From the IMG/VR virus record IMGVR_UViG_3300021959_000147, positions 1 to 37,659 of that record: 37,659 nucleotides of DNA; one strand, given 5' to 3'. The notes under the pieces were generated by a model. The model was not told where the DNA came from. It ran no database searches and saw only the letters and a program-made list of their open reading frames with translations. This DNA comes from a virus. Taxonomy: Duplodnaviria > Caudoviricetes. Position 1 is the stretch's first letter. Each line of letters begins with the position of its first letter. A program made the translations under genes and the position numbers. Below, piece by piece: positions 1,537-33,106 of the stretch.

Positions 1537-1838
1537 TAGCTTTCCCCGCTTCTCAACATCTCCAAATACTCGTCGACCGACTTGGCCGGCGTCATCGCGT
1601 CGACCGCCTTGCCCCGGTCTCGCTCTTCCTCGCGAACTGCGTACCACCTGCCACCGAGCCTCTTCATCGTGTTGAGAACGATTCTCTCCTGATCCTCGCG
1701 GGGCAAGCTGGTGAAGTGCTCGATGATCGCGTCGAGCACCTCCGACCTGTTCGCGTTCAGAGACACGGAGAGGCTCGCCACGGCGTCCGACAGGTGGCAG
1801 GCTACCCTGACCACCTTGGAGGGCCGGCCGTACGTCAC
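1536..1838 (-). CDS. Putative ribbon-helix-helix DNA-binding protein
   Basis: KVVRV strand followed by helices and NRSEVLDAII; GTGA overlap with giant gene stop. Confidence 0.5.
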   Translation of the reverse strand: MTYGRPSKVVRVACHLSDAVASLSVSLNANRSEVLDAIIEHFTSLPREDQERIVLNTMKRLGGRWYAVREEERDRGKAVDAMTPAKSVDEYLEMLRSGES

Positions 1839-4800
1839 AGGTCGCCTCCGGCGTCGACGTACGCCTTGATCAGGCTCTTCATCGTTTCCGCGATCTGATC
1901 CTTCACTCGGATCAGCTGATCAGAAGCACGAGCTCGCTCGGTTCCTCTGGAAAGCGAGCGAATCTTGTCGGTCAGATCACGCTCCTTCGACTTCAGTTTC
2001 CGCAGCCGGCTTTCGACCGACTTCGCCTTCGCTTGCATCTTCGGACTGCCGTCGACGGTGTCCCGAACAGCCTTGGCCATTGAAGGCTGTTCGCCCTCGT
2101 ACGTCTTCATCCTGACCTTGGCACTCCGAACGCGATCCCTCACCTCGTAGTAGAAGGTCGGGTACGGATTGTCCGGCCCCTTGCCGATGAACTTTCGCAG
2201 GCCGGGTACACCCTTCGCGTCGGGGAGGTCGTCGCCGAACACCGCCGACTTGTAGAGGTCGATGCCAAGAACCGCAAGCCGCTCGATGTTTCGAAGGGAC
2301 GATCCTCCGAATGTGCCGGCGAGGTACTCCCACACCTGAGGTTGCATGTCGATCGCGCCGCGGACGGCAATGTCTCCCCCGGTCAGGTGATTGATCAACT
2401 TCGCGGTGCTGTTCCAATCAATCCCGTATCGCTCTCCCGCAGATCCGATCTCCGATCGGACGGCGCCGCCGGTCTGAAGAGGCTGGTCCCCGTAGTAAAC
2501 GGGACGCCCCGTCCAACTGCGGTTCGCGATGATATCGATCGCCGCGTCTCCCATGTCTGGCAACAACGCACGCATCAATCCGTGAGCAGAATTCATCGGA
2601 GTTCCCGACACCGGGTTGAAAGCAGTCGCGTAGGAATTCGCAACCTCGCCAGCGATATCGAGCGGATTCTTCACGCCGTACGCAACTTCGACCATTCCGA
2701 ACCCAAGCTGCACCGGGATCTCTAGCCCGTACTGAAGTGGGATCTTGCTGTACTTAATCTTTCCGTTTTCGTCTCGACCCCAAGGGATGATGATGTTCCG
2801 TCGACGCTCGTACTCTGGGATCTGTTCGAGGTAATCAGGGACGCCGCTCTCGTCTTCGTCTTCTCCGCCGATTGCCATCATGGCGAAGGCCGACAACGTA
2901 CCCATTGCGGTGAGGCCACCGAACACTGCACGAGCCGGCCCCTTCCCTGTGTACAGGCCCTTCATGGTCTGCTGGTAGTTGCGGACGTTGCCCTGCACCG
3001 TTGCATTGAAGAACGCGAACACTGAGCTGAGCGGCCCGCCGAACGAGCCCTTCTTCGAGAAGTCCACCGTCAGGTTTCGAGCCATGACGCCGGCCTCTTC
3101 AGCCGACATTCCGTTCTCCCGGAGCGTCACGTAATAGCTGAACCGCCACATGTTGTCGCCGAGGTCATTCAGAACCGAGTACGTCTCGACGAACATACGG
3201 TGCATCAGGGCGGCGCCCTCGCGGACATTCGTCTCAGGTCCGGACTTGCTCAGCCGTTCCATTGCCGTGATCGTCTTGTCGACAGTCAAAGAATTGAACC
3301 ACTGCTGCTTCGCCCCTACATCCCGAAACTCCTGCCACTCCTTCGCAAGAGGACCGATCGCCTCGTTTTCTTCAGTGACATCAGCTTCGAGGTCAGGACG
3401 AACCCTTGCCCTCCACTCGCTCCTCGCGATCGTCTTCATCACCGCAGGCATTCGCTTCATCATCTGCTTCCGCATCTGATTCGGATTCATCAGACCCTGC
3501 TCTGAAGCTGCGATCATTGCGGTCTCTCCATCTAGGAGAGGCTGCCTGATCGTGAAGTCAATCGACATCCACTGCGTCGACGTGAACCGAAGCATGCTCG
3601 TGAAGATTCGGGCTGGAGAGAAGAGGAGATACACCACGGCGGAATTCCGGCTCATGTCTTGGCCGGCGTCGAGCTTCTTGATCAGCAGCTCGTCGTTGAT
3701 CTTCAGGTAGATCGTTTCGCCACGCTCGTACAGCACGCCGTCGATCTCTCGGGTCTCTTCGATTCGAACCGGGATCATCGTCTGCGGGTCTGGTTCCATC
3801 TTCTTCACCACGACCCTGTCCTTCTGCCCCTCCTCCTTGTGCATCACTCGCTTCTCAAGATCCTTCGTGGTCACGATACTGATGTGCGGGGTCGGGAACT
3901 TCTCGGCCATCCGGAGTAGACGATTGGCGATACGGCTTGTGATCGCTTCGTTTTGTGTCATCACGCGATCAACAAACAACGCCGGCGCCGCACCTCGCAC
4001 GATCGCCTTCACGGTGACTTCTGATTCCGGCCGGCCGAGAGAGTACTTGAGCTTGTCACGTCGACCAGTCGCAATGTCGATCACCGTGCCGACGCCGGAG
4101 CTTCCCTTCGAACGGCGGATCTTGTCCATCGCCGCGTCGACCGGGTCAGTGATGAACGTGCCGCCCTCGCTGCCAGTGACGTTCATGGGGACGTAGTACT
4201 TGTAGCGAGTCGTGATCCTGTCGAAGTCCTCGTTGGTGATCAGGCCAGCGTACTTCGCAATCTTCGCGGTCTCGAACGAGATCTCTTGGAAGTCAACGCA
4301 GATCTCTTCGATCTCTGCCGCCTTGGGGTCTGCCGCGTGCTCTTCAAGGAGTCTGTTGGCGGTCTCATCAGAGATGCCGCAGTTCAGCTTGCTGAGTTCT
4401 TCCTTCGCTTCGGCGCGAACCGAATTGACTTCTCGAATCCGAGCGTTTCGTTCGAGCGCATGGCTTGCTGCCATGAAGCGTCCGATCTGCTCGTTGTTGA
4501 TGCCGGCAGACTTCATTCGCTTCTTGATGCGATTCATCGTCCTCGTGCTGAACTGCCGTGCCTGTTCGGCGGACTGGCCGGGAGCAAGCCGAATCAGCTG
4601 CATCGGATCTTGCTTCTCTGCGATCCTGCTTCCCTTGACTTCTTGGATTCGGCGGATGGTTTCGGTGATCGGATACCACTCGTCTTGGAACATTTCAATC
4701 GTATGAGACCTGATGAAACGCCCGAACGCTCTCGCGTTGTGTCCGATCCCAATGCCGCCCTCGTCCTTGAGCTCTTCACCCCACGACTTGATCGGCTTTT

Positions 4801-7800
4801 CGATTCCCGAGTAGTCGCGACGCATGTATTCAAGCATCGTCTCGTCGGCGTCGGTCGGCTCCTCGTTCATGAACATCTGGAGCGGGCTTCTTGAATCTTC
4901 GATCTGGGATCGGATGTTGTCAGACAGCGAGTCCATGTGGTCGAGTGCGATCAGCCGCTCAACAGCGGCGATCGCAACGTCACCGGGATTCGTGTTCGCG
5001 TTGTACGGGTACTCCACGATCACCTGACGCTTGCCGTCTACCATTGCCGCGACCGCAAGCATTCCATTCTTTCCTTCGACTTCGAAATCGCCGGCCAGAG
5101 CAAGCGATGAACGAACTAGGGCTGGCACCTCGGCCGAGAGCTGGTCCCGGCCTTCCCTGCTAAGGGACAGCGTTCTCGGGTCCTCGGCTCGTTCGGGAAG
5201 GACGGTAACCAGACCGGACTTGGACTTCTTCGAGCCACGCTGCGGGCGTACCGGAGCGAGCAATTCGGCCTGAGTAGGACGCCTTCTCAGGTTGCGAGTT
5301 CTTCCGTCTTCGGTTTCAACCTGTTCGTACTTGTTGAAGTTTCCGCGAACGAACATGTCCACCGGGAACTTCACGCCCCACTCAACGCGGTGCATGGCTT
5401 GGGCTCGATGCCGGCCCTCGTGTCCTGTGATCTCCCAGTACCCGTTCTTCTCATCCCACTCGACGTTCAGGAACGGAGGAGATACAGGCTCACCGTTGCG
5501 AAGCTTCTGTTCGATCGCGTCGGTCCTCTCGTCCTCTTCGACCGGAGGGACCATCGCTAGGAATTCCTTTGCCGTCATCATCTTCGTCATGAAGTACGAC
5601 GCATCAGATTGATCTGGGACGGCGCCCATTCCGATCTCGCGGTCGAGCACGATCGTCTCTCGACGCTGCATGTCGATGAGAGGGCTGGACAGTGTCGGGC
5701 CAGCATCACTGGTAACGATCGACGACTTGATCTGCTCCGGATCGAACACGACGTACACGTCGCCAACTGCTCCGGTTCGGCTTCTCACGATGATGCCGTC
5801 GTAGCCGGCCTCACGCATGAGGTCGTTCATCTGTTCAGATTTCTCTTGAACTCCAAACACCTTTTCGTTCTTCGCAATTCGATCTTTGAACTCGGGGTGG
5901 TTCCGTGCGAATTCCGCACTGATGTTCAGGCGGTTGGCCGATTCGGTGATCAGTGGATTCTTCATCCGCAAGTAGACCGGGAAAGTCCTGCCGCCCTTGG
6001 CCTTCTTTTCGGCTCCAGAGTAAATGTCTGCGACCTCAGGGTCCTCTGTGAAGTACGCACCTACCCCAAGCATCCTCGCGGTTTTCGTACGGAACTTGGT
6101 GAAGTCCTCGGTGGTGACAGGAACAGCACGCATCTCTTCGTCGGTTACTGCCGTGCCAGCGCGGTGGTGCTTCGTCCCGTGGTAGACAACCTTCGGAGAT
6201 CCGTCGGCGTTCGTGACCTTCGACTCGCCGAACCACTCGCGAAACTCCACGGTCGAAACCTCTTGCCGACGTTGCATGTCGATCTCGGGCCGGCCAGTCG
6301 GCTTCTCGTTGAAGATGCCCTTGATCTGGTTCGGGTCGAACGGGATTGCGTACCGCTCATTCGGCCGGCTCGGCCTCGGTGCGATGACCACCACGCCGTC
6401 GTGACCCACGTCCTTCATGGCGTTCTGCATTGCCATGTTGAACTGTCGCTCAGCAACGGCAGACTCGTTGTCTGGATCGTTGAAGGTGTCGATTGAAATC
6501 AGAGACGTGAGAGTCTCTCGAATCGACGAGGTATCGTAGTCAGGGTGCTTGTCTTCGAACGCCTTGAGCAGAAAAGTCTGTGCTCTTCCGCTTCTTGACC
6601 TTGCACCAATCCGTTCGAGGAACTTCTCGTCTGAACGGTCAAACACGAACGGCTTCTCGATCCGGATGTATGCGGGTATGACCCGCTGGCCCGCTTCGGC
6701 GCCGGAGTACGCATACTTCGCGTAGTTGTTCGCTGTGGTCGGATCGTCCGTGAAGTACGCTCCGGCTCCGTAGACGGTCGCACCCTGTCGGCCCTTCACG
6801 TCGAACACGTTGAAATCTTCAGGCGATCCCGTGCCGTGATAGAAGACGGCAGGCATTCCTTCGGCGTCCGTGAGAACGCTGTTGCCGAACCACGCCTTGA
6901 ACTGCGGCGAGGTCGGGTCCGACTCCCGTCGCTGGAACTCGATGCCGATGTTCTCGACCGTCTCTCGAACAGACTCAACAGCCTCCGCTACTTCTCGGTG
7001 GAATCGTTCGTTGCGCGACTTGATCCCTTGAATTGCATGGTGGACGCGGAATGCTCGGGACTTCCCAATAGCCGTCGCCAGCGTTCGAGGTACTGCTCCC
7101 TTGATATTCCCAACCGAGCGGCGCAAACTTCTTCGTGCTTCGAGGCCGCGGCGGAGCGCGTCCTCAGTAAGGCGTCCGACTTCTTCTGCCTCTCGTGCAG
7201 AGAGGGATCTCCTCCACTCTGAATTCTCCTTGATGTCGGCATCAACCATCTCCTTGAGTATTTTTTCGCCGTTGTAGTTGCCGTCTTCGGCCGTGTCACC
7301 CTGAATCAAATTCGTTTCGCAAACTGTCCGGACGTATCCAAGCTCGATTCCAAGATCAGATTCGAGCTCCGAGACAAACGACGGGTCAACAACGTCATTG
7401 ACCACGGTGATCATAGTCCCCGTCGCGGTCACTTGCATGTTCCAGAAAACAAACTCTCGACCGTTCGGGTTCTCTTCCACGTATCGGTTCAGGCGGCCGA
7501 GCTTGTCAGCGCTCAACTCAACGCCCGCGGTACTGAGTAGCGTCGCATAAACCTGCCGCTCTCCGAAAGCAGGCGAGTCGATGTCCGCCGGCGGCGGCAA
7601 CGGCCGAGACATCCCGATCGACTTCTCGCCGAGCGCGTAGCCAAGCAGTGACATGAACACATCCTGCTGTTCGAAGTTCATGCCGTACATGTTCAAGCGA
7701 AGGTTCGGAGTGATCACGCCTTCGAAGTAACCGCCGACGCCCGAGCCGGACTTCCTCAGGCCCCAGTTGCTGTTGAAGATCTTGACGCCGCTCTTCGTGG

Positions 7801-10800
7801 GCAGCGTGACCTTGCCAGTTTTCTCGTCCACCTTGAACTCTGGGGTCTGCCCTCCGACGACGATGGTGTCCCGGGTGGTATCAAACCCAGCGGTGGAGTT
7901 GGGATTGACTCCGGTAGTCTCCGATCTGGCCGCGAATTGTGCTTCCAAGGCGTCGATCATTTCAGGGTCGGCGCCGCTCGCTCGCATTCGAGCAATCTTC
8001 AGCATCTCGTCCTTGGTCGCCTTCGTCATTGGCCCCGGGAGAAGAGCCGCGTACAGGCCATCCATGTACCCGTTCGTCTTCGTGCTTTTCAGAGTCGCTT
8101 CTTCGCCGGTCAGGAATTTGGCGTTCTGTGTTCTGCTGTAGTAAACGTCACCCTTCTGTGCGTTGCCTGCAAGGAAGGCCAGCATTCTGTTGATGACCTC
8201 GTAGACCGCGTACCTAGCCTTGAGCAGCTCCTCCCGCTCGGAACTGGTCAGCGGGGCTTCGCCTGAATCGTCGGCCTTGAGAGCCGCGTCAATCGCCCGA
8301 CGAAGAGATCGCTCGCTGCCCTTGTCGTTCGTAGGCCCGCCGACTTCGAGACTGATGGCCGCGGCTTCCTTTGCCTCGACCGAAGGCTGAAGGATCTTGG
8401 AGAAGTCATCTTCCGTTGCTGCCACGTTGAGGTCGATGCCCTTCGTGCCGTCATCCAAAGTGATCACGGACTCGGAGCCATTCAACTCAAGCAAACCGAT
8501 GGCACTGTCCATCGCCTCATCGAACGTACCGCTGTCCGAAAGATGAGACCAAGGGTACGCCTGAAGCTGCCACGGCGTCCAAGGCGTGAGCAGTGATTCG
8601 TCAGCCAAGGTCGCGTTTCTATCAGCGGCTCGCTCGGACGCGTCCGCAAACTCTTGAGATTCGCGGACCCTTCGGTTCACCTCTTCCGCAAGCCTTGCGT
8701 TGTAGATCGCCGTGTACAGGTACGCGTACGGGTTGTTGAATGCGGCGTTGTCCCCACCGATCTTGCCGGTCTTCGTGTTGTACTTCCGCATCCCGAACAT
8801 ATACGCGACCCAGATGTCGTTAGTCGACAGCGGTATGTCCGTGATTTCTCCTGCCAAGAACGACATCGTGTCGCCAAACGACGACGCCTTGTACGAGTTC
8901 GATCGTTCGTATTCTCCTGCGATTGCCGTCCGAGTCAGGTCGGGGGTCGGGAGAGAAACGAAGCTGTATCCCTTGGATTCGTAATCCGCAGCAATTGAGT
9001 ATGCCCGGAAGAAGTTGTCCTGCACGGGAGTCAAGGGGCTCGTGGCAGAGAGCAGGTCTGAAATCTTCCGAATGCTGTTCGTGGAAGAGAAGACCGTCCT
9101 GCTTCGGATCGCGTCGCCGCTCGCCTCGTACCAGAACCTCTTGTCTTCACGGAGAGACTCGTCCGCGAACGAAGCGTTCAGCATGTCCGCGTCCATGATC
9201 GGGAACGAGTCAGAGACGTTGTCGCTCATGCGAACATCAGTCAGCGAGTTGTCCCCCTTGAACTCTTCGACAAACGCTCGGCTCGCACTTTCGAGAGCGA
9301 GGGGCGACGAAGAACGCATGTCCTCGATCGCTTGATCTCGGATCTTCTCCATGTCTTCTTGAGTGAACGTCCCCACCGGGTAGACCACCCGCACGCCGCG
9401 TAGGGATCGGTCGTGAGCGACCGTCCCCAACGCGAGCGACGGCTCTTGGCCCGGCTCGTACGGCAAGGGTACGCCACCGGCACGGAGGTCCGCAGAAACG
9501 AAGTCCCTGAGATCCTCGGTGACCACCGCATCCTTCGACCCAACTCCACCAAGATGCTTGCCTCGCTCTTGGTACTCAATCTCTGGCCGGCCGGGCCAGT
9601 CCTCGACATCAAGGCCCTTCTCGGCTGTAACCCACGAGGGGAACTTGACAATCTTCTGCTCGGAGTACGGTCGATCCTTCGGGTGGACGAAGTCAGGATC
9701 ACTGAGCTCAGGAAGCGTGCCGTCTTCACGACGAAGATGCGGGCCGTAGTTGACCCAAGAGTTCTGGCCTCGGGTCTCGCTCGTCATTGCGGCGCGGGCC
9801 GCCGGCGTAAACATTTGAACGTGCTGCCTCCACGCGTTCTCTTCGCCTCGGGGTCCGAACTGGTGACCCTCCTTTGCGTGACCGAAGATGTCGTGGACTG
9901 CGCGGAACAAGTCGTTCACCAACTGCACATGCGGCACGCCCTCGGAGTCGAGCACTGTGCCGCCGGCCTTTCGAAGCAGGGGGTTCTGCTTGATCAGTTG
10001 ATCCATCTCAATCCGACCAGAGCCGAACGAGTCTTGTTCTCCAAGAGTCTTGTAGTAGTAGATCCTCTTGTTGTCGCGAACGTCCTGAATCATCTCGCGA
10101 CTGTTCCGGTACGGCTGGCCCTGCGAGCCCCACGGAATCATCTGGTATCCGGCGTCGCGAAGAGACTTGTACTGGCCGATCACTTCGCGGGCCATCGCCT
10201 TGTGCGACTCGACCATCTTGGGGTCGGCGAACGAGTCAGGGGCAGAGTCGAACATGTCAGCGATCACGCGAGCTCGGTCGGTGTCGACCGACACCACGCC
10301 CTCGCGGCTCTTGCTCTCGTCGTAATCGATGTTCGCGTCGAGTGCGTAGCTAGCCGCGATCGCACGGATGCCAGAGTTCGGCTCGTGCCGACCCCTCGCT
10401 TGCATCTCAACGTCGGCCGCGTCGCCTTCGATGCGGCCAGATGGCACGGTCGACGAGGTGACCTCGGCGGACATCGCGTCGAAGTCGCGGATGATCAGGT
10501 TCTCAAGCGTGCCGCCTCGACGCCTCGCCATGAGGCGGCGGAGGCGATCGCGAGTCCGCTGAAAGATCGACGCGTCCTTGTCGTACATCGAGACCAAGCC
10601 GGCCCGACGCATTCCCTCTCGGTCAGTCAACTGTTCTGCACGAAGCTCGCGGTCTCGGTTTCGGCCTTCGGCAGATCCCTGAATCCCAGCCAACAGACGG
10701 TCGAGGTTTTCTTCGGAGCCGTGCGTCGTGCGGAGGTACTTGTCGACCGCCGCAATCGTCCCCGGCTTGCCGTCGCCTTCGATATCTCGGGCGTGAATGT

Positions 10801-13618
10801 TTTCGTGCAGCATCGTCTGCACGTAGCTCTCAAGCAGAACGCGACGCAAGATCTTCTTGGCCGCCTTCGTCCTTCCGTCAGACTCGACCCCTGCTGTCTC
10901 TTGCGTCGATACCTTGACGTACCGAACCCCGGTCTCCCGGTCGTAGAATCCCAAACCGCCGTTCGCGTCTCCTTGATAGAAGACGACAGTTTCACCGAAG
11001 GGCATCGCGTCCTTTGCCTTGCGAGCAATCGGCCCGGCTTCTTCTTCGGAAACAATCCGAACCGAGTCAGCCGAGGCGTCTTCGCCATCCTTGCGGAGCT
11101 GGGCCTTTAGCTTTCCAATGCCGGCGTCTTCCTCGGCTTCTTCTTCGGCCTCTTCCGCAATGTCTTCGTCGACCGGAGACTCAGCTTCTTCTTCGGTCTC
11201 GCGAGACATCATCTCGATGGGATTGCCGTCTTCGTCGTAGTCCGTCGGGTCGAGACTAATGCCGCGAGCATCGTCCAGAAGCTTCATGATCTGGTGGGCG
11301 ATCTCGGGGTCCCTGCTTTCCGCGTACTCCACCAGCAGAAGCTGGAGCTGATCGCGAGCAACCACGTTGTCGCCAAGCATGTCGTCGATGAAGGCTTGAC
11401 TATCTTCCGACGAGCTCAGGCCCGTCAGCGCCCACAACTCGTTTTCTTGCTCGGCGGTGATTTCGTCTCCGAGCCCGTCAAGCTCAGCGATCCGAGCCTC
11501 GATCGCCATCTCCTCTTCTTCGCTCGTGCGGTCCGGGCCGGCGGCCTCGGCGGCGGCGGACAGCTTCGCCTTGATCGCAGCGTTCAGCTGATCCCGATCA
11601 TCGATGTCTTCCTCGACGCCCAGCTTCACCGCGAGGTCCAGAGCCGCTGCGTCGGTAAGCCGCTCAATGCCCCCTAGGCCGTCGGCCATCGCGGCGATCG
11701 CAGCGGCAGAGTCCTCGGCGGACTCAGAAGCGTCTGGGGCGGGGTCAGGCCCGAGAGGGACCTCGGACTCGCCTGAAGGCCCGGACGCCTCAGGGGCCGC
11801 CTCAGGGGCTCTGATCGCATCCGCGATCTGCTGCCGGATGTCGTCCTTGGCGGCCTCGCTGAGCGGATTTCCCTCGGCGTCGACGCCCGCATCCAGCATC
11901 AGCTGGAGCTCTTCTGCCATCCGCTTCTCTGCCTCTCGTTCCTTGGAGGACTTCGAAGCCTTCGAGACCTGATCACTGATCCGCTCGACGAGCTTTCCCT
12001 TCAGGATCTCCGAAGCTTCAGCCTCCGGGAGGAACAACGCTGCGTCCTCTTCCGTGATCCTTCCTTCGTCTCGAATAGTTGCGGCCAGCTTCGGGAACCG
12101 CTCGACCAGACGCTTCGCGATCGCGTTCAAAGCATTTCTGCCGAACAGCTTCGCCGAGGGCCTCGGGCCGTCGTCAGCCTCCTCTGTCTCGGCGACCTCT
12201 CCTCGAAGGATGTACTCCTTGTCAGCGTCGCTCGGGAGCTCGCCTCGGTTCACGCCTTCAGCGACCGCAGCCTCTCGTCCGAACGTCGCATCCTTGCGAC
12301 CCATCGCGCTGTTCAAGAGATCCTGAACGTCGGCTTCTTCGCCGACCTGAGCTTGCTCTTGTTGGGCCTTCTTCCTCGCGCTTCGTTCAGATCGAAGACC
12401 CTTGATCCCCTGCACCATCTTGCTTGCGTCCGACTCGCTGAGTCCGGACGCGACGAGGCGGTCCTTGAGCAGTTGCCTCTCGGCTGTTGTCGCTGATTCA
12501 GACTCAACCAACGCACGGGACTCGGCGCCGACACGCTTCGCTTGCCGTTGCTTCGCCGCTGATCCTCCGACCGCTGCCACCGAACCGATCGCACCTCCGT
12601 AGATCGCACCCTTCATCGCCGCTTCAAGAACCTCGTCCAAGGTGACGCCGCCGTTCGAAGCATCGATGCCTCGATAGAGCAGGGTCATCCCGGTCTGCAC
12701 TGCTTCCGTCACAGCCTCTTCCGCTGCTTCGCTCGTGAACCCGCCGATTGCAGTCCCGATGATCCTCGCCCCGACGCGAGGATCTCCGGTCTTGACGGCT
12801 TCGATGAAAGCCTTGTTGACCGAGGCTCGCATGTGCTTCTCGATGCCCTCTTGCCCGAAGAACGTGAACCGACGGACAACGGGAAGAGCGCTCATCTTAT
12901 TGAACACGAACTCTGAAGCACCACCGATGATGCCGACGCCGACGCCCATCATCGGGTCGTATTCGATCTCGTTGTCTTTGGTGTACTGGTAGTAGCCATC
13001 GACGGAGTTGCCCACCGCGGTCGATGTCATCATTGCGAGACCAGCCGGCCCCATCAGAATCGTCAGCCCTTGCCCCGCGACGGCGCCGAACTCGCGTGCC
13101 GTTCCGTCTGGATCATGAAACAGCTTACGAGTCTCTTCTTCGTTCATCGTGCCGAAGCCCGCAGCTATCTGGCCGCCTGCTTCGAGGAACAGGTTCCCGT
13201 TCATGTGCTGGTCGAACAAGTGGCCCAGCATCTGGTCAGCCATCTGTGACGACTTCAGGAACTTCTTGGTTCCGTCAGGCAGAGAACGCTCGATCGCGAA
13301 CTTGGCGACGCCCTTGTAGAAGTCACTGACGAATCCTCCGGTCGCTTCGTCAATAGCGCCGCCTATCGAAAGCAACGAACCGGGAGCCACGTTGGTGAAG
13401 TACCGACCGGCTTCCAATCCAAAATCGCTGACCGGCGCCACGGTCGTGTCCATCAGGTTCTGACCGTAGGTCCCACCGCCGGCCTCGGCCGGCGAGAGCG
13501 ACGTTCCCGGCTCGGCTTCTCGACGCTCGGCAATCTTTGCTCGGCTTCTCATCACCGCCTTGTAGGCGGGATCTTCCTTGTAGCTATCGTCGTTGACCGG
13601 CGTGTTTGGGTTGATCAT
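1835..13618 (-). CDS. Giant polyvalent virion/ejection protein (3927 aa) with peptidase, glycosylase-like, 2x ART-like, ParB-like and LPD38 regions
   Basis: Uninterrupted 11.8-kb ORF at the end of the structural module; Gly/Ala-rich hydrophobic N-terminal part; recognisable domain motifs listed below. Confidence 0.9.
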   Translation of the reverse strand: MINPNTPVNDDSYKEDPAYKAVMRSRAKIAERREAEPGTSLSPAEAGGGTYGQNLMDTTVAPVSDFGLEAGRYFTNVAPGSLLSIGGAIDEATGGFVSDFYKGVAKFAIERSLPDGTKKFLKSSQMADQMLGHLFDQHMNGNLFLEAGGQIAAGFGTMNEEETRKLFHDPDGTAREFGAVAGQGLTILMGPAGLAMMTSTAVGNSVDGYYQYTKDNEIEYDPMMGVGVGIIGGASEFVFNKMSALPVVRRFTFFGQEGIEKHMRASVNKAFIEAVKTGDPRVGARIIGTAIGGFTSEAAEEAVTEAVQTGMTLLYRGIDASNGGVTLDEVLEAAMKGAIYGGAIGSVAAVGGSAAKQRQAKRVGAESRALVESESATTAERQLLKDRLVASGLSESDASKMVQGIKGLRSERSARKKAQQEQAQVGEEADVQDLLNSAMGRKDATFGREAAVAEGVNRGELPSDADKEYILRGEVAETEEADDGPRPSAKLFGRNALNAIAKRLVERFPKLAATIRDEGRITEEDAALFLPEAEASEILKGKLVERISDQVSKASKSSKEREAEKRMAEELQLMLDAGVDAEGNPLSEAAKDDIRQQIADAIRAPEAAPEASGPSGESEVPLGPDPAPDASESAEDSAAAIAAMADGLGGIERLTDAAALDLAVKLGVEEDIDDRDQLNAAIKAKLSAAAEAAGPDRTSEEEEMAIEARIAELDGLGDEITAEQENELWALTGLSSSEDSQAFIDDMLGDNVVARDQLQLLLVEYAESRDPEIAHQIMKLLDDARGISLDPTDYDEDGNPIEMMSRETEEEAESPVDEDIAEEAEEEAEEDAGIGKLKAQLRKDGEDASADSVRIVSEEEAGPIARKAKDAMPFGETVVFYQGDANGGLGFYDRETGVRYVKVSTQETAGVESDGRTKAAKKILRRVLLESYVQTMLHENIHARDIEGDGKPGTIAAVDKYLRTTHGSEENLDRLLAGIQGSAEGRNRDRELRAEQLTDREGMRRAGLVSMYDKDASIFQRTRDRLRRLMARRRGGTLENLIIRDFDAMSAEVTSSTVPSGRIEGDAADVEMQARGRHEPNSGIRAIAASYALDANIDYDESKSREGVVSVDTDRARVIADMFDSAPDSFADPKMVESHKAMAREVIGQYKSLRDAGYQMIPWGSQGQPYRNSREMIQDVRDNKRIYYYKTLGEQDSFGSGRIEMDQLIKQNPLLRKAGGTVLDSEGVPHVQLVNDLFRAVHDIFGHAKEGHQFGPRGEENAWRQHVQMFTPAARAAMTSETRGQNSWVNYGPHLRREDGTLPELSDPDFVHPKDRPYSEQKIVKFPSWVTAEKGLDVEDWPGRPEIEYQERGKHLGGVGSKDAVVTEDLRDFVSADLRAGGVPLPYEPGQEPSLALGTVAHDRSLRGVRVVYPVGTFTQEDMEKIRDQAIEDMRSSSPLALESASRAFVEEFKGDNSLTDVRMSDNVSDSFPIMDADMLNASFADESLREDKRFWYEASGDAIRSRTVFSSTNSIRKISDLLSATSPLTPVQDNFFRAYSIAADYESKGYSFVSLPTPDLTRTAIAGEYERSNSYKASSFGDTMSFLAGEITDIPLSTNDIWVAYMFGMRKYNTKTGKIGGDNAAFNNPYAYLYTAIYNARLAEEVNRRVRESQEFADASERAADRNATLADESLLTPWTPWQLQAYPWSHLSDSGTFDEAMDSAIGLLELNGSESVITLDDGTKGIDLNVAATEDDFSKILQPSVEAKEAAAISLEVGGPTNDKGSERSLRRAIDAALKADDSGEAPLTSSEREELLKARYAVYEVINRMLAFLAGNAQKGDVYYSRTQNAKFLTGEEATLKSTKTNGYMDGLYAALLPGPMTKATKDEMLKIARMRASGADPEMIDALEAQFAARSETTGVNPNSTAGFDTTRDTIVVGGQTPEFKVDEKTGKVTLPTKSGVKIFNSNWGLRKSGSGVGGYFEGVITPNLRLNMYGMNFEQQDVFMSLLGYALGEKSIGMSRPLPPPADIDSPAFGERQVYATLLSTAGVELSADKLGRLNRYVEENPNGREFVFWNMQVTATGTMITVVNDVVDPSFVSELESDLGIELGYVRTVCETNLIQGDTAEDGNYNGEKILKEMVDADIKENSEWRRSLSAREAEEVGRLTEDALRRGLEARRSLRRSVGNIKGAVPRTLATAIGKSRAFRVHHAIQGIKSRNERFHREVAEAVESVRETVENIGIEFQRRESDPTSPQFKAWFGNSVLTDAEGMPAVFYHGTGSPEDFNVFDVKGRQGATVYGAGAYFTDDPTTANNYAKYAYSGAEAGQRVIPAYIRIEKPFVFDRSDEKFLERIGARSRSGRAQTFLLKAFEDKHPDYDTSSIRETLTSLISIDTFNDPDNESAVAERQFNMAMQNAMKDVGHDGVVVIAPRPSRPNERYAIPFDPNQIKGIFNEKPTGRPEIDMQRRQEVSTVEFREWFGESKVTNADGSPKVVYHGTKHHRAGTAVTDEEMRAVPVTTEDFTKFRTKTARMLGVGAYFTEDPEVADIYSGAEKKAKGGRTFPVYLRMKNPLITESANRLNISAEFARNHPEFKDRIAKNEKVFGVQEKSEQMNDLMREAGYDGIIVRSRTGAVGDVYVVFDPEQIKSSIVTSDAGPTLSSPLIDMQRRETIVLDREIGMGAVPDQSDASYFMTKMMTAKEFLAMVPPVEEDERTDAIEQKLRNGEPVSPPFLNVEWDEKNGYWEITGHEGRHRAQAMHRVEWGVKFPVDMFVRGNFNKYEQVETEDGRTRNLRRRPTQAELLAPVRPQRGSKKSKSGLVTVLPERAEDPRTLSLSREGRDQLSAEVPALVRSSLALAGDFEVEGKNGMLAVAAMVDGKRQVIVEYPYNANTNPGDVAIAAVERLIALDHMDSLSDNIRSQIEDSRSPLQMFMNEEPTDADETMLEYMRRDYSGIEKPIKSWGEELKDEGGIGIGHNARAFGRFIRSHTIEMFQDEWYPITETIRRIQEVKGSRIAEKQDPMQLIRLAPGQSAEQARQFSTRTMNRIKKRMKSAGINNEQIGRFMAASHALERNARIREVNSVRAEAKEELSKLNCGISDETANRLLEEHAADPKAAEIEEICVDFQEISFETAKIAKYAGLITNEDFDRITTRYKYYVPMNVTGSEGGTFITDPVDAAMDKIRRSKGSSGVGTVIDIATGRRDKLKYSLGRPESEVTVKAIVRGAAPALFVDRVMTQNEAITSRIANRLLRMAEKFPTPHISIVTTKDLEKRVMHKEEGQKDRVVVKKMEPDPQTMIPVRIEETREIDGVLYERGETIYLKINDELLIKKLDAGQDMSRNSAVVYLLFSPARIFTSMLRFTSTQWMSIDFTIRQPLLDGETAMIAASEQGLMNPNQMRKQMMKRMPAVMKTIARSEWRARVRPDLEADVTEENEAIGPLAKEWQEFRDVGAKQQWFNSLTVDKTITAMERLSKSGPETNVREGAALMHRMFVETYSVLNDLGDNMWRFSYYVTLRENGMSAEEAGVMARNLTVDFSKKGSFGGPLSSVFAFFNATVQGNVRNYQQTMKGLYTGKGPARAVFGGLTAMGTLSAFAMMAIGGEDEDESGVPDYLEQIPEYERRRNIIIPWGRDENGKIKYSKIPLQYGLEIPVQLGFGMVEVAYGVKNPLDIAGEVANSYATAFNPVSGTPMNSAHGLMRALLPDMGDAAIDIIANRSWTGRPVYYGDQPLQTGGAVRSEIGSAGERYGIDWNSTAKLINHLTGGDIAVRGAIDMQPQVWEYLAGTFGGSSLRNIERLAVLGIDLYKSAVFGDDLPDAKGVPGLRKFIGKGPDNPYPTFYYEVRDRVRSAKVRMKTYEGEQPSMAKAVRDTVDGSPKMQAKAKSVESRLRKLKSKERDLTDKIRSLSRGTERARASDQLIRVKDQIAETMKSLIKAYVDAGGDL
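2200..2870 (-). other. LPD38-like domain of giant protein (approximate limits)
   Basis: YLEQIPEYERRRNIIIP...KIPLQYGL...IIANRSWTGRPVY, the pattern typical of the C-terminal LPD38 domain. Confidence 0.75.
5250..5659 (-). other. ParB/Srx-like domain of giant protein
   Basis: PVSPPFLNVEWD...WEITGHEGRHRA matches the ParB-N GxHR signature. Confidence 0.65.
5678..6265 (-). other. ADP-ribosyltransferase-like domain 2 (ART-PolyVal type)
   Basis: FREWFGESKV...PKVVYHGT...GAYFT...PVYLRMKNP...GYDGII...YVVFDPEQIKS. Confidence 0.8.
6284..6925 (-). other. ADP-ribosyltransferase-like domain 1 (ART-PolyVal type)
   Basis: FKAWFGNSVL...PAVFYHGT...GAYFT...PAYIRIEKP...GHDGVV...FDPNQIKG. Confidence 0.8.
8545..9150 (-). 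other. Putative HhH DNA-glycosylase-like domain (DUF7178-like)
   Basis: Ordered motifs WY..LSATSP....N..YK..F..TNDIW..Y..LA..P.QLQA..W. Confidence 0.55.
9581..10393 (-). other. Conserved phage domain with HDxxGH motif (putative metal-binding, zincin-like)
   Basis: NDLFRAVHDIFGH (9878-9895)...FGPRGEENAW..H...ETRGQNSWVN. Confidence 0.55.
10412..11200 (-). other. Zincin-like metallopeptidase domain of giant protein
   Basis: GFYD...YV strand region, then TMLHENIH (HExxH, 10793-10807) and downstream RELRAE. Confidence 0.65.
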
Positions 13619-20563: not shown

Positions 20564-20694
20564 GTCTTGTCCATCTTGTCTTTGATTTCAGCAAGGTCAC
20601 GGCGAATACCTTTCACCATGGTGTAGTAAACCAGCACCCACACGATCAGCGGAGTGAGATTGTTCTCAAGGATTGGAATGATCGAAGGTTCCAT
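20560..20694 (-). CDS. 44-aa single-TM protein, holin-like (not in ORF track)
   Basis: MEPSIIPILENNLTPLIVWVLVYYTMVKGIRRDLAEIKDKMDKT*; TGATG overlap upstream and GTGA overlap downstream. Confidence 0.7.
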   Translation of the reverse strand: MEPSIIPILENNLTPLIVWVLVYYTMVKGIRRDLAEIKDKMDKT

Positions 20695-27499: not shown

Positions 27500-27737
27500 C
27501 GGAGCTCACCGCCTTCTTCTCTTCCGGCGCCGGCGTGTCCTTCTTCGGCTGCGGCTTTCCGATCTTCAGGCTCATGTACTTCTGGCCGCCCGCCGAGTCG
27601 CGGAGCCACGCGGCAATCTCGAACTCTTCGCCGTCCTCAAGAATGCCCCTACCCTTGTAGTCGGGCTGGTTCTCCTTCTCCTTGCGATCGTTCTTGAAAA
27701 GGGATCCGAATCCGGGCTTGTGTTGAAATCCACTCAT
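27483..27737 (-). CDS. Small single-stranded DNA-binding protein
   Basis: GSLFKND...QPDYKG...IAAW...YMSLKI and acidic tail DDIPF; next to ERF. Confidence 0.8.
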   Translation of the reverse strand: MSGFQHKPGFGSLFKNDRKEKENQPDYKGRGILEDGEEFEIAAWLRDSAGGQKYMSLKIGKPQPKKDTPAPEEKKAVSSDDIPF

Positions 27738-28360
27738 GACTTGCTCTCCTTGCTCGATTCGAGCATCTTCTGAAGTAGTTCTTCGGGCATCTGGCTAACC
27801 TTCGTGATCCGCCGACCTTCGACGGCAGACGCCCTTTCCATGCAGCTCTCAAGCCAGCTTCCGCCGTCGGCCTTCAGCCTTGCAGCCTCCATCACGGCAG
27901 AGACCAAGGGCGAGCCGGGGTCGGCCGGGGCGGTGACCGCCGGCTTCCGGACGGGCTCGTCGTCCGACCTGTTGTCGACCTCCAGCTCATCAACACGCGG
28001 AACGAGCAGCAGGTCTCGAAGCGTGTAGCTCAGAGCGGTCGTGACCGCCCCGAGGACGGCCTTGTCAGCAGGCCGACCCTTGGTCTCGACGATTGGGATG
28101 TCCGCGCTGAAGTGCCGCTCCTCTCCAGAATCGGCGTGGGTCAAGCAGAAGTTGGAACGAACCAGCGTGCCTTCTACGAACCAAGACGAACGGTTGAACA
28201 GAAGGCCGTTCGAGATCAGCGCCTTCCTGAGTTGGCCGACCATGCCATCCGCGGACACGTAGTCGTACTTCGCGAACTCGTTCCTAGCGTTCTTGACGAC
28301 TCCGGCAACGTCAGCCTGAGCGGCCAACAACGCCTTCGCCAAATGCTTCTCGTTTTCCAT
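27734..28360 (-). CDS. erf: ERF family ssDNA annealing protein
   Basis: ALLAAQ...KNARN...YDY...LTHADSGE...GAVTTALSYTLRDLLLVP; ATG 28360 in TGATG overlap. Confidence 0.85.
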   Translation of the reverse strand: MENEKHLAKALLAAQADVAGVVKNARNEFAKYDYVSADGMVGQLRKALISNGLLFNRSSWFVEGTLVRSNFCLTHADSGEERHFSADIPIVETKGRPADKAVLGAVTTALSYTLRDLLLVPRVDELEVDNRSDDEPVRKPAVTAPADPGSPLVSAVMEAARLKADGGSWLESCMERASAVEGRRITKVSQMPEELLQKMLESSKESKS

Positions 28361-29139
28361 CAGTGGTTCTCCTTCAAGAGCCATGCAGGGGGTAAAACCT
28401 CGACAGGTTTGTCGTACGAAATCCAGTAGTCATTCTTGCTGCGATTGTAGAACTGCCCGAGCCATTCCAGCACGGTCTTCCGACCGAGGTCCAGTGACTC
28501 GCGGGACATCTTGAACACGCAGACTTCGAACGGGGCCGTCTTCTCGACGGCCACGAAGAAGAAGTCGGTGATCGGATATCCGCATCGGGCCGCGCCAGAC
28601 GAATACCACGCTGCCTGAGTGTGGTAGAAGTAGTTGAAGATCTGTCGGCCGAACGCCGCAGGGGTCGCATCAATCGTCGTCTTCAGGTCGACCATGATCG
28701 TCTTCTCGACGATCGCGTCGGCCTTGCACTTGCAGTCAATTCCCCACAGATCATCCTTCCAGTAGCACTCGGTCTCCGCGACCCATGACCCTTGGAACAG
28801 CTCCTTCACCACCGGGTGATTGTGGACCGACTCCGACATCCGAACCGCAGTGTCGTACTGATCCTTCGTGAAGACCATTTTATCAGCGTTATCCGACTCG
28901 AACTCCTTCCACTTCTCCTTGCCAACCTTGGTTCGCTTCGAGACTTCCGGAGCCACGGCGACGTGCTTCGGAACGAGGTGGGGTTCGAGGACGCAGAGAT
29001 GAGCAAGCGTACCGAGACGCATCGCCTCGGTCTCCGCCGTGCCGTTCTCCATCTGGTGCTTCACGCGAGCAGCGCCCTTCGAGAATGCCTTCAGGGTGCT
29101 GTGGTTTACGCCGGGGTGGTTCCAGTATTGCTCATCCAT
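28360..29139 (-). CDS. RecE/exonuclease VIII-like PD-(D/E)xK nuclease (DUF3799-like)
   Basis: NHSTLK, GTLAHLCVLEP, CKCKAD, VDLKTT, YHTQAAWY, FVAVEKTAPF. Confidence 0.92.
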   Translation of the reverse strand: MDEQYWNHPGVNHSTLKAFSKGAARVKHQMENGTAETEAMRLGTLAHLCVLEPHLVPKHVAVAPEVSKRTKVGKEKWKEFESDNADKMVFTKDQYDTAVRMSESVHNHPVVKELFQGSWVAETECYWKDDLWGIDCKCKADAIVEKTIMVDLKTTIDATPAAFGRQIFNYFYHTQAAWYSSGAARCGYPITDFFFVAVEKTAPFEVCVFKMSRESLDLGRKTVLEWLGQFYNRSKNDYWISYDKPVEVLPPAWLLKENH

Positions 29140-29954: not shown

Positions 29955-31115
29955 TCAGGCGTAGACAAGCTTTGCAGCGTCGTTCTTGAGGACGAAGTTG
30001 CGACGACGATCGGTGCAACGGATGTTCATCGAGAGGTCGACATGAGTGGTCATGACAGTGTGCTGGTTCGGCGCGGTGTCCGGCCCAGTCTCACGCATGT
30101 ACTCGCCTTCGAGGAAGCACGACTCGAACACGCCCCAGTTGATCCCGTAGATCGGGAACGCTGCGGCGCCACCAGTGAGAGTGACGTTCGAATCAAGGTA
30201 CGGGCAGTAGGTAAGGGGGATACCCCGGAAGACCACCTTGCCGTCCGTCGCAGCGACATCCATTCCGAGGTTGTCGTTGCGGCGAGCAAGGACCTCTTCA
30301 AGGTACGAGATAACCTTGTAGTTGGTGTAGAGGCCGTAGCGGTTGCCCTTGTTGTAGTCCGCAACCTGAGCGCCGGGGATCGGCTTGAAGTTGCACTTGG
30401 TGTACGCCTCACGAAGCTCAGCGACCATGTCGGAGAACCCGGTCGAATCCGGGTTACCGCCACCAGTCTGTCCATGGCCGTTGCCGTCGGTGGCGTACGT
30501 CGGAGCAGACAACGAGGCAACGCTGTCGCTGTACACGCCCTGCCAGTTCTGCCAGCGAGGAGTATTGGCGGGGTTGATACCGGCCACATCGGTGAACCCG
30601 GTAGGAACTCCGCCGAGGAATCCAGAAGTGCTGGTGTCGGCGTCCGAGATCCAGTACCCGACACCGTAGATCTTCTTGTCGTCGGCGGGTCCGGTGGGGA
30701 CGCCCCAGAAACGCTTCTCGATGTGCTCGGCAAGCGAGATCATCGCATCGTTTCGACGGATGCGAACGAGGTCCACGATCTGGGCGGGAGCACGGTTGAT
30801 CGCGATCTCTCGACGCTCGATCGAGTAGTTCGCAGTCATGTGCCGGTACGGGATCTGAGCGGTCGCCATCACATCAGCGACGTTCATCTGGTCGACCTCG
30901 TACAGGCCGGTGTCCCGTGCGGAACCCGACTGGTCAGTCATGAGGTTCCACTGGATGTTGGGGCCGCCGGTGAAATTCACCCGCGACTCATTGAGAAGCT
31001 CGCGAAGAGCACAGTGGTCCTGAATGTCGGTCGCGATCTCGGTGAACCGAGCGCGGCCGAGCTCGTTCTGCGTCGTCTTGATCAGATCGACGAGATCGTT
31101 GGCTTGCAGACTCAT
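29955..31115 (-). CDS. Major capsid protein
   Basis: AGGAG SD, 386 aa, after scaffold; GGPNIQW, AQIPYRH...NYSI...E...N...IVDLV, GINP....WQN, FRGIPL. Confidence 0.85.
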   Translation of the reverse strand: MSLQANDLVDLIKTTQNELGRARFTEIATDIQDHCALRELLNESRVNFTGGPNIQWNLMTDQSGSARDTGLYEVDQMNVADVMATAQIPYRHMTANYSIERREIAINRAPAQIVDLVRIRRNDAMISLAEHIEKRFWGVPTGPADDKKIYGVGYWISDADTSTSGFLGGVPTGFTDVAGINPANTPRWQNWQGVYSDSVASLSAPTYATDGNGHGQTGGGNPDSTGFSDMVAELREAYTKCNFKPIPGAQVADYNKGNRYGLYTNYKVISYLEEVLARRNDNLGMDVAATDGKVVFRGIPLTYCPYLDSNVTLTGGAAAFPIYGINWGVFESCFLEGEYMRETGPDTAPNQHTVMTTHVDLSMNIRCTDRRRNFVLKNDAAKLVYA

Positions 31116-31134
31116 TAGAAACGCTCCTTACCGT

Positions 31135-31836
31135 TCAACCATTGATTCCGAGCTCACGCATCCGAGCCTCGACGGCCTTCTTCGCTCGATCGCGAGCCGA
31201 TGCCGACTCCCCGGTTCGAGCAGAAGGACGCGAGATGATCTGACGCTCGCGAGATTGAATCTTCTTGGTGAACGAGTTTCGTTCTTCGTTGATAGCTGCG
31301 TCGGGGAATTCCGAACGCAACGCCTTGTCGAAAAGGTCGGAGTCAGAAGGCATCTTCTTCTTGGTGGCCTTGTAGCCACTGCGAAGAATTTCCATCTGAT
31401 CCTGTACCCGCTGCCGGTTTGAAGATTCGGTCGGGGATGGCTCATCCGATCCGAAGATTTCCTCTCGTCCTGCGAACAGGTCGGTGGTTGGCTTTGCCTC
31501 CGTCGGCGCCGCCGCCACCTTCGCGGCGAGCTTCTTCTCCAGATCGTTGACCTTTGCAGTCATCGTTCCGAGAATCTTCTCTACCGCAGAAGCCAGCTCT
31601 GAGTCGAGGAAGTCATCGGCCTTGCCGATCGTGACTTCTTCCCCGGCCTCGATCACTGGCTCTTCGGCCACCTCTTCGACAGCGGAATGTTCATCGCTGG
31701 CAGGAGTGGCGTCCTCGGTCACGGGCTCGGGATCGCTGGAATGTTCGTCAGCGACCTCGTCTCGTACGACCTCGGTGGGGTCTTGAATGTCGAAGGGCTC
31801 TCGCTCTTCAACGACGTTTGATTCGTTCTCAGTCAT
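31135..31836 (-). CDS. Capsid scaffolding protein
   Basis: Acidic disordered N-terminus, helical middle, basic C-terminal helix; directly upstream of capsid gene. Confidence 0.7.
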   Translation of the reverse strand: MTENESNVVEEREPFDIQDPTEVVRDEVADEHSSDPEPVTEDATPASDEHSAVEEVAEEPVIEAGEEVTIGKADDFLDSELASAVEKILGTMTAKVNDLEKKLAAKVAAAPTEAKPTTDLFAGREEIFGSDEPSPTESSNRQRVQDQMEILRSGYKATKKKMPSDSDLFDKALRSEFPDAAINEERNSFTKKIQSRERQIISRPSARTGESASARDRAKKAVEARMRELGING

Positions 31837-32191
31837 AGCCTTGCCTATCCCTCATTCCGAGGGCCTTCATAGCAGCTCGTCTGTGAGCGGCGTTTTCGAA
31901 GATGGCCCGCCCGTCGCGGGTGTAATTCAAGTTTACACCCTTGGCACGCATCTCCTTCATCATCTTCGGAACTTCGTCAGGATGAGTCCCTGCGGAATCC
32001 GATGTCATCGGCCATCCGGCGGAATTCGGGTTCACGCCCGAGTGCTCGCATCCGATACATCGAGACCAGAGAACTTCATCGATCAGCAAGTCTCCGTCGT
32101 GCTTGTCAGTGCGATTGCACATCTCAGCGACGGACATCATCATCTTCTTCTCTTCCCCGGTTTCTGGATGGGTGAAGATGTACGTCGGCAT
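31829..32191 (-). CDS. Hypothetical protein with degenerate FmdB-like N-terminus
   Basis: MPTYIF start, one CxxC (CIGC); TGATG coupling. Confidence 0.55.
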   Translation of the reverse strand: MPTYIFTHPETGEEKKMMMSVAEMCNRTDKHDGDLLIDEVLWSRCIGCEHSGVNPNSAGWPMTSDSAGTHPDEVPKMMKEMRAKGVNLNYTRDGRAIFENAAHRRAAMKALGMRDRQGYD

Positions 32192-32568
32192 CAGCGTCCG
32201 CCCTTTCCGCCCGTGTTCCCCCGAGGTCGATTATTGGCGGTGCCGCCCTTGTTGCCGAAATCGCCGGGGCCTACCTTGCGAGTGCCGCCGCCACCCTTGT
32301 TGAATGTGCCTTCTCGCTTCTCCCTCGCGGCTTTCTTTCGCTTTTCAAGGTCGGCCGCGGCAGCTCTCCGCTTGGCTTTCTCTGCGTTCCTCGCGATGCG
32401 TTGAGCGTGACGACCCTGCGGCCTACTCACATTCATCCCGCTCACCAAGGTCCCCTTGGTGATGTCGACCTTCGGCTTGGGAGGATCAGGCTTCGTGTAG
32501 TCCGCAGACCTGTCTTTGAAACCCGCACTGAAACGGTCGGCCATTGCTTCGTATTCGTCCTTCGCCAT
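32191..32568 (-). CDS. Basic Gly/Lys/Arg-rich protein (125 aa)
   Basis: Start reassigned to ATG 32568 (TAATG overlap). Confidence 0.7.
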   Translation of the reverse strand: MAKDEYEAMADRFSAGFKDRSADYTKPDPPKPKVDITKGTLVSGMNVSRPQGRHAQRIARNAEKAKRRAAAADLEKRKKAAREKREGTFNKGGGGTRKVGPGDFGNKGGTANNRPRGNTGGKGGR

Positions 32569-32696
32569 TACTTGTACCTCATTTTCTTCATGACCTTCTT
32601 CGCCGGCTTCTTCTTGGAAGTCTTCTTGGCGGCCTTCTTGGCCGCGGCCATGCCTGCTTTGGTGTAGGGGAACTTCTTTCCGTTTACGTTCGGCAT
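32568..32696 (-). CDS. 42-aa Lys-rich protein (not in ORF track)
   Basis: MPNVNGKKFPYTKAGMAAAKKAAKKTSKKKPAKKVMKKMRYK*; TAATG overlaps on both sides. Confidence 0.85.
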   Translation of the reverse strand: MPNVNGKKFPYTKAGMAAAKKAAKKTSKKKPAKKVMKKMRYK

Positions 32697-32830
32697 TACT
32701 TCTTCCTCGCAGTCTTCTTGGAGTCTCTGAAAGCCTTGTCGGTCGGCGCACCCTTATCGCCCTTCTTCCGCATCTTCTTCCCTGCCTTTTTCTTCGCGTT
32801 GATGTTCGCGTACAAACCACGCTTCGCCAT
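32696..32830 (-). CDS. 44-aa Lys/Arg-rich protein (not in ORF track)
   Basis: AGGAG SD; MAKRGLYANINAKKKAGKKMRKKGDKGAPTDKAFRDSKKTARKK*. Confidence 0.85.
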   Translation of the reverse strand: MAKRGLYANINAKKKAGKKMRKKGDKGAPTDKAFRDSKKTARKK

Positions 32831-32844
32831 AACGAGCTCCTAAT

Positions 32845-33105
32845 TCAAGAACAGTTCCATCGCTTCCGCGCAGCCTTTCCACGCGGCCCATCCCATCCCT
32901 GAGATCGAGCACAGAAGGACTTCCTTCTTGAGGCCCGCTTGCCTGTCGGGTTCTTCTCGGTGACAGCAGTCTTCAGCTTACTACCGGGGTTCTGCTTCCG
33001 GTACTTCTTCACGCCCTTCGCCGTCATGCCGGCGCCGGCCTTGACCGACCGCTTGTCGCCAGAGCTGACGCTCATTCCCTTCATGCTGCCTTTCTTCTTC
33101 GCCAT
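32845..33105 (-). CDS. 86-aa basic protein (DUF6321-like)
   Basis: GMTAKGVKKYR..NPGSKLKTAV...RRKSFCAR...RKRWNC. Confidence 0.8.
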   Translation of the reverse strand: MAKKKGSMKGMSVSSGDKRSVKAGAGMTAKGVKKYRKQNPGSKLKTAVTEKNPTGKRASRRKSFCARSQGWDGPRGKAARKRWNCS

Positions 33106-33106
33106 G

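Follow-up and report, generated by a model that had tools for sequence, protein, structure and literature searches.

Giant proteins that are encoded in the virion module of phages and combine a zincin-like metallopeptidase (MPTase) with ART-PolyVal and LPD38 domains were described as polyvalent proteins by Iyer et al. 2017 (PMC5512222). Their paper proposed that zincins of this kind process their own chain, with DdrB of phage P1 as a processed case, though its accessible text contains no cleavage site or joint motif. The accessible text of PMC9503650 has nothing further on cleavage sites, and our search of the literature, mostly of papers available without subscription, found no description of joint tags in such proteins. 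Related giants with an LPD38 domain are known from cultured podophages (phi24B gp47/933W L0134, Bcep22 gp75/JC1 gp69, PTXU04_00025). According to the accessible parts of the respective reports, such proteins were detected in JC1 and phi24B virions, PTXU04_00025 is required for efficient PTXU04 infection, and the phi24B authors proposed that the peptidase of their giant protein attacks peptidoglycan. N4 gp50, as far as its description in PMC13434306 is accessible, has a membrane-binding N-terminal part, an HExxH domain and a large C-terminal part, and is ejected like beads on a string. Finally, the gp65/gp66/gp67 polyproteins of crAss-like phages are fused virion proteins with a zincin, for which autoproteolysis is likewise proposed and which are called "likely cleaved" (bioRxiv 2020.03.07.982082), the accessible text giving no cleavage site.

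The protein described here is a polyvalent protein with the same kinds of domains as those of Iyer et al. 2017, to which we add candidate sites, their lineage-specific variants and a mapped crossover point. With the LPD38 giants of cultured podophages it has the C-terminal region in common (22-25% identity), whereas those proteins have other cargo and another tag. Its general build is like that of N4 gp50; the N4 protein, in contrast, has one cargo enzyme and is intact as a recombinant protein (accessible text of PMC13434306), and it was not among the LPD38-region matches listed. The crAss-like polyproteins differ in cargo and in phage group.

The locus and its giant protein

The window, i.e. 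the whole stretch of DNA analysed (37,659 bases), represents most of a podophage-like genome. Its minus-strand genes run in the order large terminase, SU10-like portal, capsid, adaptor and tail genes, ending in a 3927-aa ORF. Major capsid, portal and large terminase lie at 29955..36582 (minus strand). Capsid and tail genes are separated by genes of the same orientation for RusA, an ERF single-strand annealing protein and an exonuclease VIII-like protein (25987-29139, the latter two at 27734..29139). No tRNA genes were found in the window. A small protein among the virion genes (20694-21329, minus strand) has a weak dockerin-like match that stays below the cut-offs in both Pfam (E=0.0016) and NCBIfam (GC-type dockerin, E=4e-4). 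The gene immediately preceding the giant one, at the place where a second ejection protein would be encoded, specifies a charged protein of 514 aa (13630-15174, minus strand) that has no family match and does not contain the tag described below.

The giant gene (1835..13618, minus strand) is the last gene of the virion module. Pfam detects ART-PolyVal (PF18760) twice and LPD38 (PF18857) once in its product. By the usage of Iyer et al. 2017 it is a phage polyvalent protein: several unrelated domains, including members of the ART-PolyVal and LPD families, are joined in one large chain, the gene lies within the virion morphogenesis module, and domains are gained and lost mosaically among relatives. 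For the last 1000 residues, matches occur in 336 of 50,697 cultured phage records and include giant proteins of 933W-type, Bcep22-type, Vibrio and Ruegeria phages (20-31% identity in this part). By analogy with these proteins, we infer that the giant protein is packed in the virion and injected with the DNA.

A repeated tag

A sequence-only reading of the window had drawn attention to seven copies of the pattern [ILV]-[ED]-[MYF]-[QM]-x-R, which we call the tag, and had interpreted them as candidate cleavage sites at domain boundaries. All seven are where that reading placed them, at residues 801, 1070, 1347, 2226, 2446, 2648 and 2929 of the single 3927-aa ORF, and the claimed extension to GRPEI[ED] is present at two copies. 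Shuffled sequences contain 0.053 copies on average and two at most, none of 2000 shuffles reaching seven. When patterns of the same shape were built from any of 19 residue classes, a list that contained the classes of the sequence-only reading, the best pattern in the real protein was the one originally proposed (-log10 p 12.7), as compared to 3.7-7.4 for the best pattern in each of 40 local shuffles. A chance or hand-fitted pattern is ruled out by these two tests. Unguided motif searches over 121 proteins, which had been suggested as a check, were on the other hand of little help: the signal was weak and the tag was not ranked first in the giant protein, even though 22 of the 121 proteins exceeded the 95th percentile of the null and tags of other lineages surfaced. 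The automatic guided motif test likewise missed the giant protein itself (p=0.10).

The conservation of the tag was followed in relatives designated by P numbers (120 proteins listed of 735 matches, with six more fetched from loci). The unchanged pattern occurs in 2-5 copies in each of the five relatives P0005-P0009 (40-49% identity), and just 14 matches are seen across the 110 distant proteins P0011-P0120. The core of the pattern is real, but its third position varies in relatives, and what is kept is hydrophobic-[ED]-x-[QM]-x-R. In P0005-P0009 the core residues are 0.93-1.00 identical at five of the six orthologous sites tested (copy 5 was left out because of module loss), while the flanks range from 0.07 to 0.72; copy 1 is the least conserved, its core being only 0.60 identical.

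Synonymous differences between copies had been taken to point to selection on the peptide, and the codons agree with this. Among the 59 codon pairs of the seven copies that encode the same residue, 24 are identical, as compared to 23.9 expected from the codon usage of the gene, so DNA identity is not maintained beyond the demand of the peptide and it is the peptide that is kept. A DNA repeat under selection can be ruled out on the same grounds, a 17-nt repeat being common to copies 5 and 6 only. In the structure model (overall pLDDT 48) the copies fall in low-confidence segments.

Modules, boundaries and swapping

All modules of the giant protein are on the minus strand, and they are described here from the N- to the C-terminus. 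The N-terminal region (aa 1-800, 11219..13618) has a hydrophobic segment at aa 179-197 by hydropathy and, in PHROG, weakly matches N4-like virion RNA polymerases in their N-terminal part (E=3e-4); it is likely the membrane/ejection part. Tag copy 1 (IEMMSR, aa 801, 11201..11218) precedes a predicted zincin metallopeptidase, which extends over about aa 845-1058 (10445..11086) according to motifs and alignment, and copy 2 (VEMQAR, aa 1070, 10394..10411) follows it. Next comes the HDxxGH module (9581..10393), which is bounded by copy 3 (IEYQER, aa 1347, 9563..9580). The block of 873 aa between copies 3 and 4 (residues 1353-2225, 6944..9562) is untagged, probably contains two or more domains and has no direct Pfam match; its first part is weakly similar to DUF7178 regions found in other polyvalent proteins, through a 15.5-bit overlap with the PF23802 region of P0043. 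Copy 4 (IEFQRR, aa 2226, 6926..6943) opens the first ART-PolyVal module (6284..6925; PF18760, E=6e-23), copy 5 (IDMQRR, aa 2446, 6266..6283) the second, ART2 (5678..6265; PF18760, E=3e-23), and copy 6 (IDMQRR, aa 2648, 5660..5677) a module with the word GHEGRHR (5204..5659) that has no Pfam match and that, as we assume, resembles ParB. A small conserved module of about 115 aa (4835..5182) is preceded by an eighth tag position (about aa 2806-2812, 5183..5203), where a full tag is present in six of nine aligned relatives (P0005-P0010); the site has decayed in the giant protein and in P0001, P0003 and P0004. Copy 7 (LEYMRR, aa 2929, 4817..4834) marks the start of the conserved C-terminal region (1835..4816), which contains LPD38 (aa 3598-3776) and is common to giant virion proteins of cultured podophages. 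The domain names of the sequence-only reading thus stand for the two ART-PolyVal modules and LPD38, which Pfam confirms, and in part for the zincin, which has motifs and alignment in its favour but no library match; "glycosylase-like" and "ParB-like" were matched in no library.

The HDxxGH module is widespread and mobile. It has no Pfam family match, yet it is highly conserved, often with 40-50% identity between distant phages, and most of the 735 matches cover this part. It was found in 213 cultured phage records, 199 of them mycobacteriophages, and is annotated as a structural protein in Rhodococcus phage E3. In cultured phages it occurs also as short separate genes. A second metal site might be formed by its H-D-x-x-x-H residues and a GEE word further downstream.

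The tags coincide with boundaries of homology. When 115 distant proteins are aligned to the giant protein by BLAST, coverage goes up and down at copies 2-7; 25 alignments run across copy 2 and only 0-5 across each other copy. The profiles of ART, HDxxGH and two more modules begin 6-14 residues past a tag. The proposal that tags sit at domain boundaries holds in this sense, although not every boundary is tagged, as the 873-aa block shows.

Modules are also gained and lost exactly at the tags. ART2 is missing from tag to tag in P0001, P0002, P0004 and L010-L012, P0010 lacks the GHEGRHR-word module from the tag onward, and P0009 has three tagged ARTs. The event can be followed at the nucleotide level in L010, L011 and L012, whose DNA follows that of the window through copy 5 and resumes the match with the first base of copy 6; these loci encode proteins of the lengths of P0004 and P0001 and are therefore not independent of them. 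The crossover, which may have been either a gain or a loss of ART2, falls in 11 identical bases that open both copies. A module-swapping joint had been offered as an alternative to cleavage, and this role is borne out, the DNA crossover being inside the motif. It is compatible with cleavage and with every rival reading discussed below; the proposed alternatives are not mutually exclusive, and the swap joint is a demonstrated by-product of a peptide signal. The ERF and exonuclease VIII-like genes are a plausible route for crossovers in such short homologies.

One may go further and regard the tag as only a recombination joint, or as a structural start element of the modules, which spreads by crossing over and has no signalling role. 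Crossovers inside the tag, the fixed spacing from tag to module start and the presence of ERF, exonuclease VIII-like and RusA genes in the phage all fit this view. We nevertheless consider it decidedly unlikely: synonymous positions within the tag are free (24 vs 23.9), the copies lie in low-confidence segments of the model, and one and the same module has a tag that differs from lineage to lineage and is missing in zincin-less kin.

Tags in other polyvalent lineages

Other polyvalent lineages carry their own tag at the same joints, namely RYS/RFS, FMP, FLP, LFQ, KxQ and LxSRR, with for example nine regex matches of RYS/RFS in P0043 and seven FMP tags in each of P0030 and P0086 (tag classes, lineage patterns and the cluster pattern were set by eye). 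In 8 of 10 clusters a mechanical comparison of windows found that the stretches before ART and after HDxxGH resembled each other more closely inside a lineage than across lineages (p=0.019); against random windows of the same protein the p value was 0.042. In the proteins of 933W, Bcep22 and Vibrio K248 the zincin is immediately followed by an aromatic-Ser word. In the lineage of P0102, P0106, P0108, P0114 and P0045, an LFQ-type word lies about 35 residues before HExxH, at the position of the first strand of other zincins. A strict rule that tags occur only downstream of the zincin fails, since the LFQ lineage is tagged before its late zincin and copy 1 of the giant protein precedes the zincin.

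The predicted zincin and its probable link to the tags

The embedded domain is a predicted zincin peptidase. Its HExxH motif occupies residues 938-942, and H938, E939, H942, D945 and E991/E995 do not vary among 11 aligned proteins with identities as low as 40%; in addition, the domain can be aligned with about 100 other HExxH domains. A zincin-like MPTase is defined at the sequence level, in the accessible text of PMC5512222, by a HExxH helix, a downstream Glu as third ligand and an Asp, and the domain has the helix, the downstream Glu and an Asp three residues after the motif. Two low-confidence AlphaFold2 models (pLDDT 48-50) show the expected order of helix, three strands and helix. No match was found in domain libraries, and with these low-confidence models Foldseek and VIA-align gave no informative PDB match. 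The viral structure library returned only other uncharacterised polyvalent proteins, and the ESM Atlas only unnamed clusters. Close relatives are almost absent, with two matches among 1.84 billion representatives and none in further searches.

Several comparisons across lineages link the tags to the zincin. In the guided motif test a repeated tag (p<=0.05) was found in 20 of 99 HExxH proteins and in 0 of 28 without the motif, or in 15 of 39 and 0 of 11 clusters, respectively. This test is weak. Some HExxH words among the 99 do not belong to zincins; of the 28, two have a HExxxH variant and tags and a third is a fragment. In the largest cluster, from which P0075 was excluded and in which many proteins are near-copies, there are 36 tags in 25,202 residues after the zincin (1.43 per 1000 aa), 7 in 18,505 residues before it (0.38 per 1000 aa; 13 proteins) and 4 in 35,409 residues of zincin-less kin (0.11 per 1000 aa; 12 proteins). 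P0082 and P0089 bear a tag at the same HDxxGH start where each of the nine zincin-less kin compared has none. A zincin ahead of the HDxxGH module goes with a higher tag score after that module (medians 4.2, 2.35 and 1.39 over 24, 14 and 9 clusters, p=0.006), while the score before HDxxGH does not differ with zincin position (p=0.56).

The tag type follows the zincin tree more closely than the cargo tree. Among 47 proteins (51 of 127 were labelled by eye, and 4 without a cargo domain were dropped), tag class requires 8 changes on the zincin tree, the minimum being 6, 10 on the cargo tree and about 31 when shuffled; the LFQ word is inside the zincin window, so there is some circularity in this comparison. 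On well-supported branches each tag class has one origin on the zincin tree, as opposed to 2-3 origins for four classes on the cargo tree. An independent-pairs test on the cargo tree, which corrects for phylogeny, leaned in this direction as well (of 11 pairs, 2.2-3.7 for and 0.7-2.0 against), but none of the four thresholds used gave significance (median p 0.6-1). The idea that the zincin reads the tags is thus supported by the cross-lineage comparisons but not by the phylogeny-corrected test, and since the zincin is passed on along with the N- and C-terminal scaffold, the two cannot be told apart by co-variation.

Cleavage, binding or another protease

Zincins often cut before a hydrophobic residue. 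A repeated site at module joints, as in a self-processing polyprotein, is present in the giant protein, and the occurrence of the HDxxGH module as separate short genes speaks in favour of release by cutting. As the best of the readings, we give an even chance to the proposal, which is built on sequence comparison, that the protein is packed whole, ejected, and cut at the tags by its embedded zincin in the host. The whole protein would be packed in the head, its N-terminal part would anchor in the inner membrane, and the chain would enter the host as beads on a string. The zincin would then fold and cut at the tags, freeing up to eight pieces of about 85, 30, 31, 96, 25, 23, 32 and 112 kDa, and the freed ADP-ribosyltransferases and other cargo would act apart. 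As tags share short DNA identity, recombination could move a module in frame with its tag, and the giant gene would thereby be a plug-in cassette system.

Among proteins of similar build, the best studied is the N4 virion RNA polymerase (vRNAP, gp50), which speaks against cutting. In the accessible text of PMC13434306 the recombinant protein, with its HExxH domain, is not degraded and its density is contiguous past the HExxH subdomain; PMC5512222, in its accessible part, adds that N4 vRNAP is packaged unprocessed and that ArdC and TraC1 are both transferred whole. A trigger that acts after ejection would reconcile the intact N4 protein with cutting, as an added assumption. N4 gp50 (L013), whose structure is solved, has the word TLFHS at residues 2385-2389, which is like the LFQ tag class and lies directly after the HExxH subdomain. 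The same observations can be read differently: the tag may stay uncut and bind to the zincin or another part of the scaffold. It would then be a docking or ratchet signal, either keeping the chain in order inside the head or setting the pace at which the chain threads through the tail. Such binding would account for the co-variation of tag and zincin, and likewise for an N4 protein that is intact even though a tag-like word follows its zincin, and N4 vRNAP has in fact been modelled as one membrane-anchored chain (accessible text of PMC13434306). It would leave unexplained, however, why the catalytic residues H938, E939, H942 and E991/E995 are invariant in 11 proteins down to 40% identity, and why the tags stand directly before each module start, as expected of a release site; we regard binding without cutting as rather unlikely.

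The prohead protease of T4 works in trans while the head matures, cleaving propeptides off many proteins. Its motifs and those of SPN3US are, like the tag, short and repeated, and in the accessible accounts they are cut in head-packaged proteins, including ejection proteins. The tag might accordingly be a cutting site for another protease, either a phage maturation protease or a host enzyme. The portal-fused proteins P0035 and P0041, in which a Mu-type portal is joined to a 3100-aa polyvalent chain, contain four copies each of their own YA[TI] tag (0.07-0.11 expected) and no zincin, so tags can serve another reader. A search for the genomic locus of P0035 found none. Unlike the T4 and SPN3US motifs, the tag of the giant protein is confined to that one protein: the capsid, scaffold-like and other virion proteins checked do not contain it, apart from one word in the portal (33107-34894, minus strand). 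This word, LDMQSR at residue 402, is kept in the portal of the relative G001 (L014; 78% identical) and is probably a coincidence in a conserved stretch. No prohead protease was recognised in the window or in G001, which is 97% complete, although a divergent one could be missed. In G001, where 32 of 56 listed ORFs were scanned and alternative-frame ORFs left out, there was no S78 protease, nor any other protease family except for one weak M78 match. The latter is an IrrE/M78-like HExxH ORF (L016:3364-3927, plus strand; E=9e-4) that lies outside the structural module; as a weak peptidase candidate it counts for this reading. The agreement of tag type with the zincin tree counts against it, and altogether we find cutting by another protease quite improbable.

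Coming back to cutting by the embedded zincin, the proposal can be widened, somewhat short of an even chance and hence tentatively, to the LPD38/N4-type ejection proteins of many podophages. These may be self-processing polyproteins with a lineage-specific protease-and-tag code, in which the zincin would free the cargo inside the host, the tag would co-evolve with the zincin, and the tag DNA would be an in-frame joint that gives captured effectors a release site.

Implications

The giant protein belongs to a known class; what is new is the tag code with its link to the zincin, and a swap point resolved to the nucleotide. Self-processing of such proteins has been proposed since 2017 without sites, and the mapped sites, fragment sizes and protease-tag pairs make the hypothesis directly testable. 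If it is true, tailed DNA phages would use polyprotein processing in the style of RNA viruses, and the delivery of several anti-host enzymes through one ejection protein would be explained. Module boundaries in thousands of giant proteins that lack annotation could then be read from the tags, and the embedded zincins would be a source of small sequence-specific proteases.
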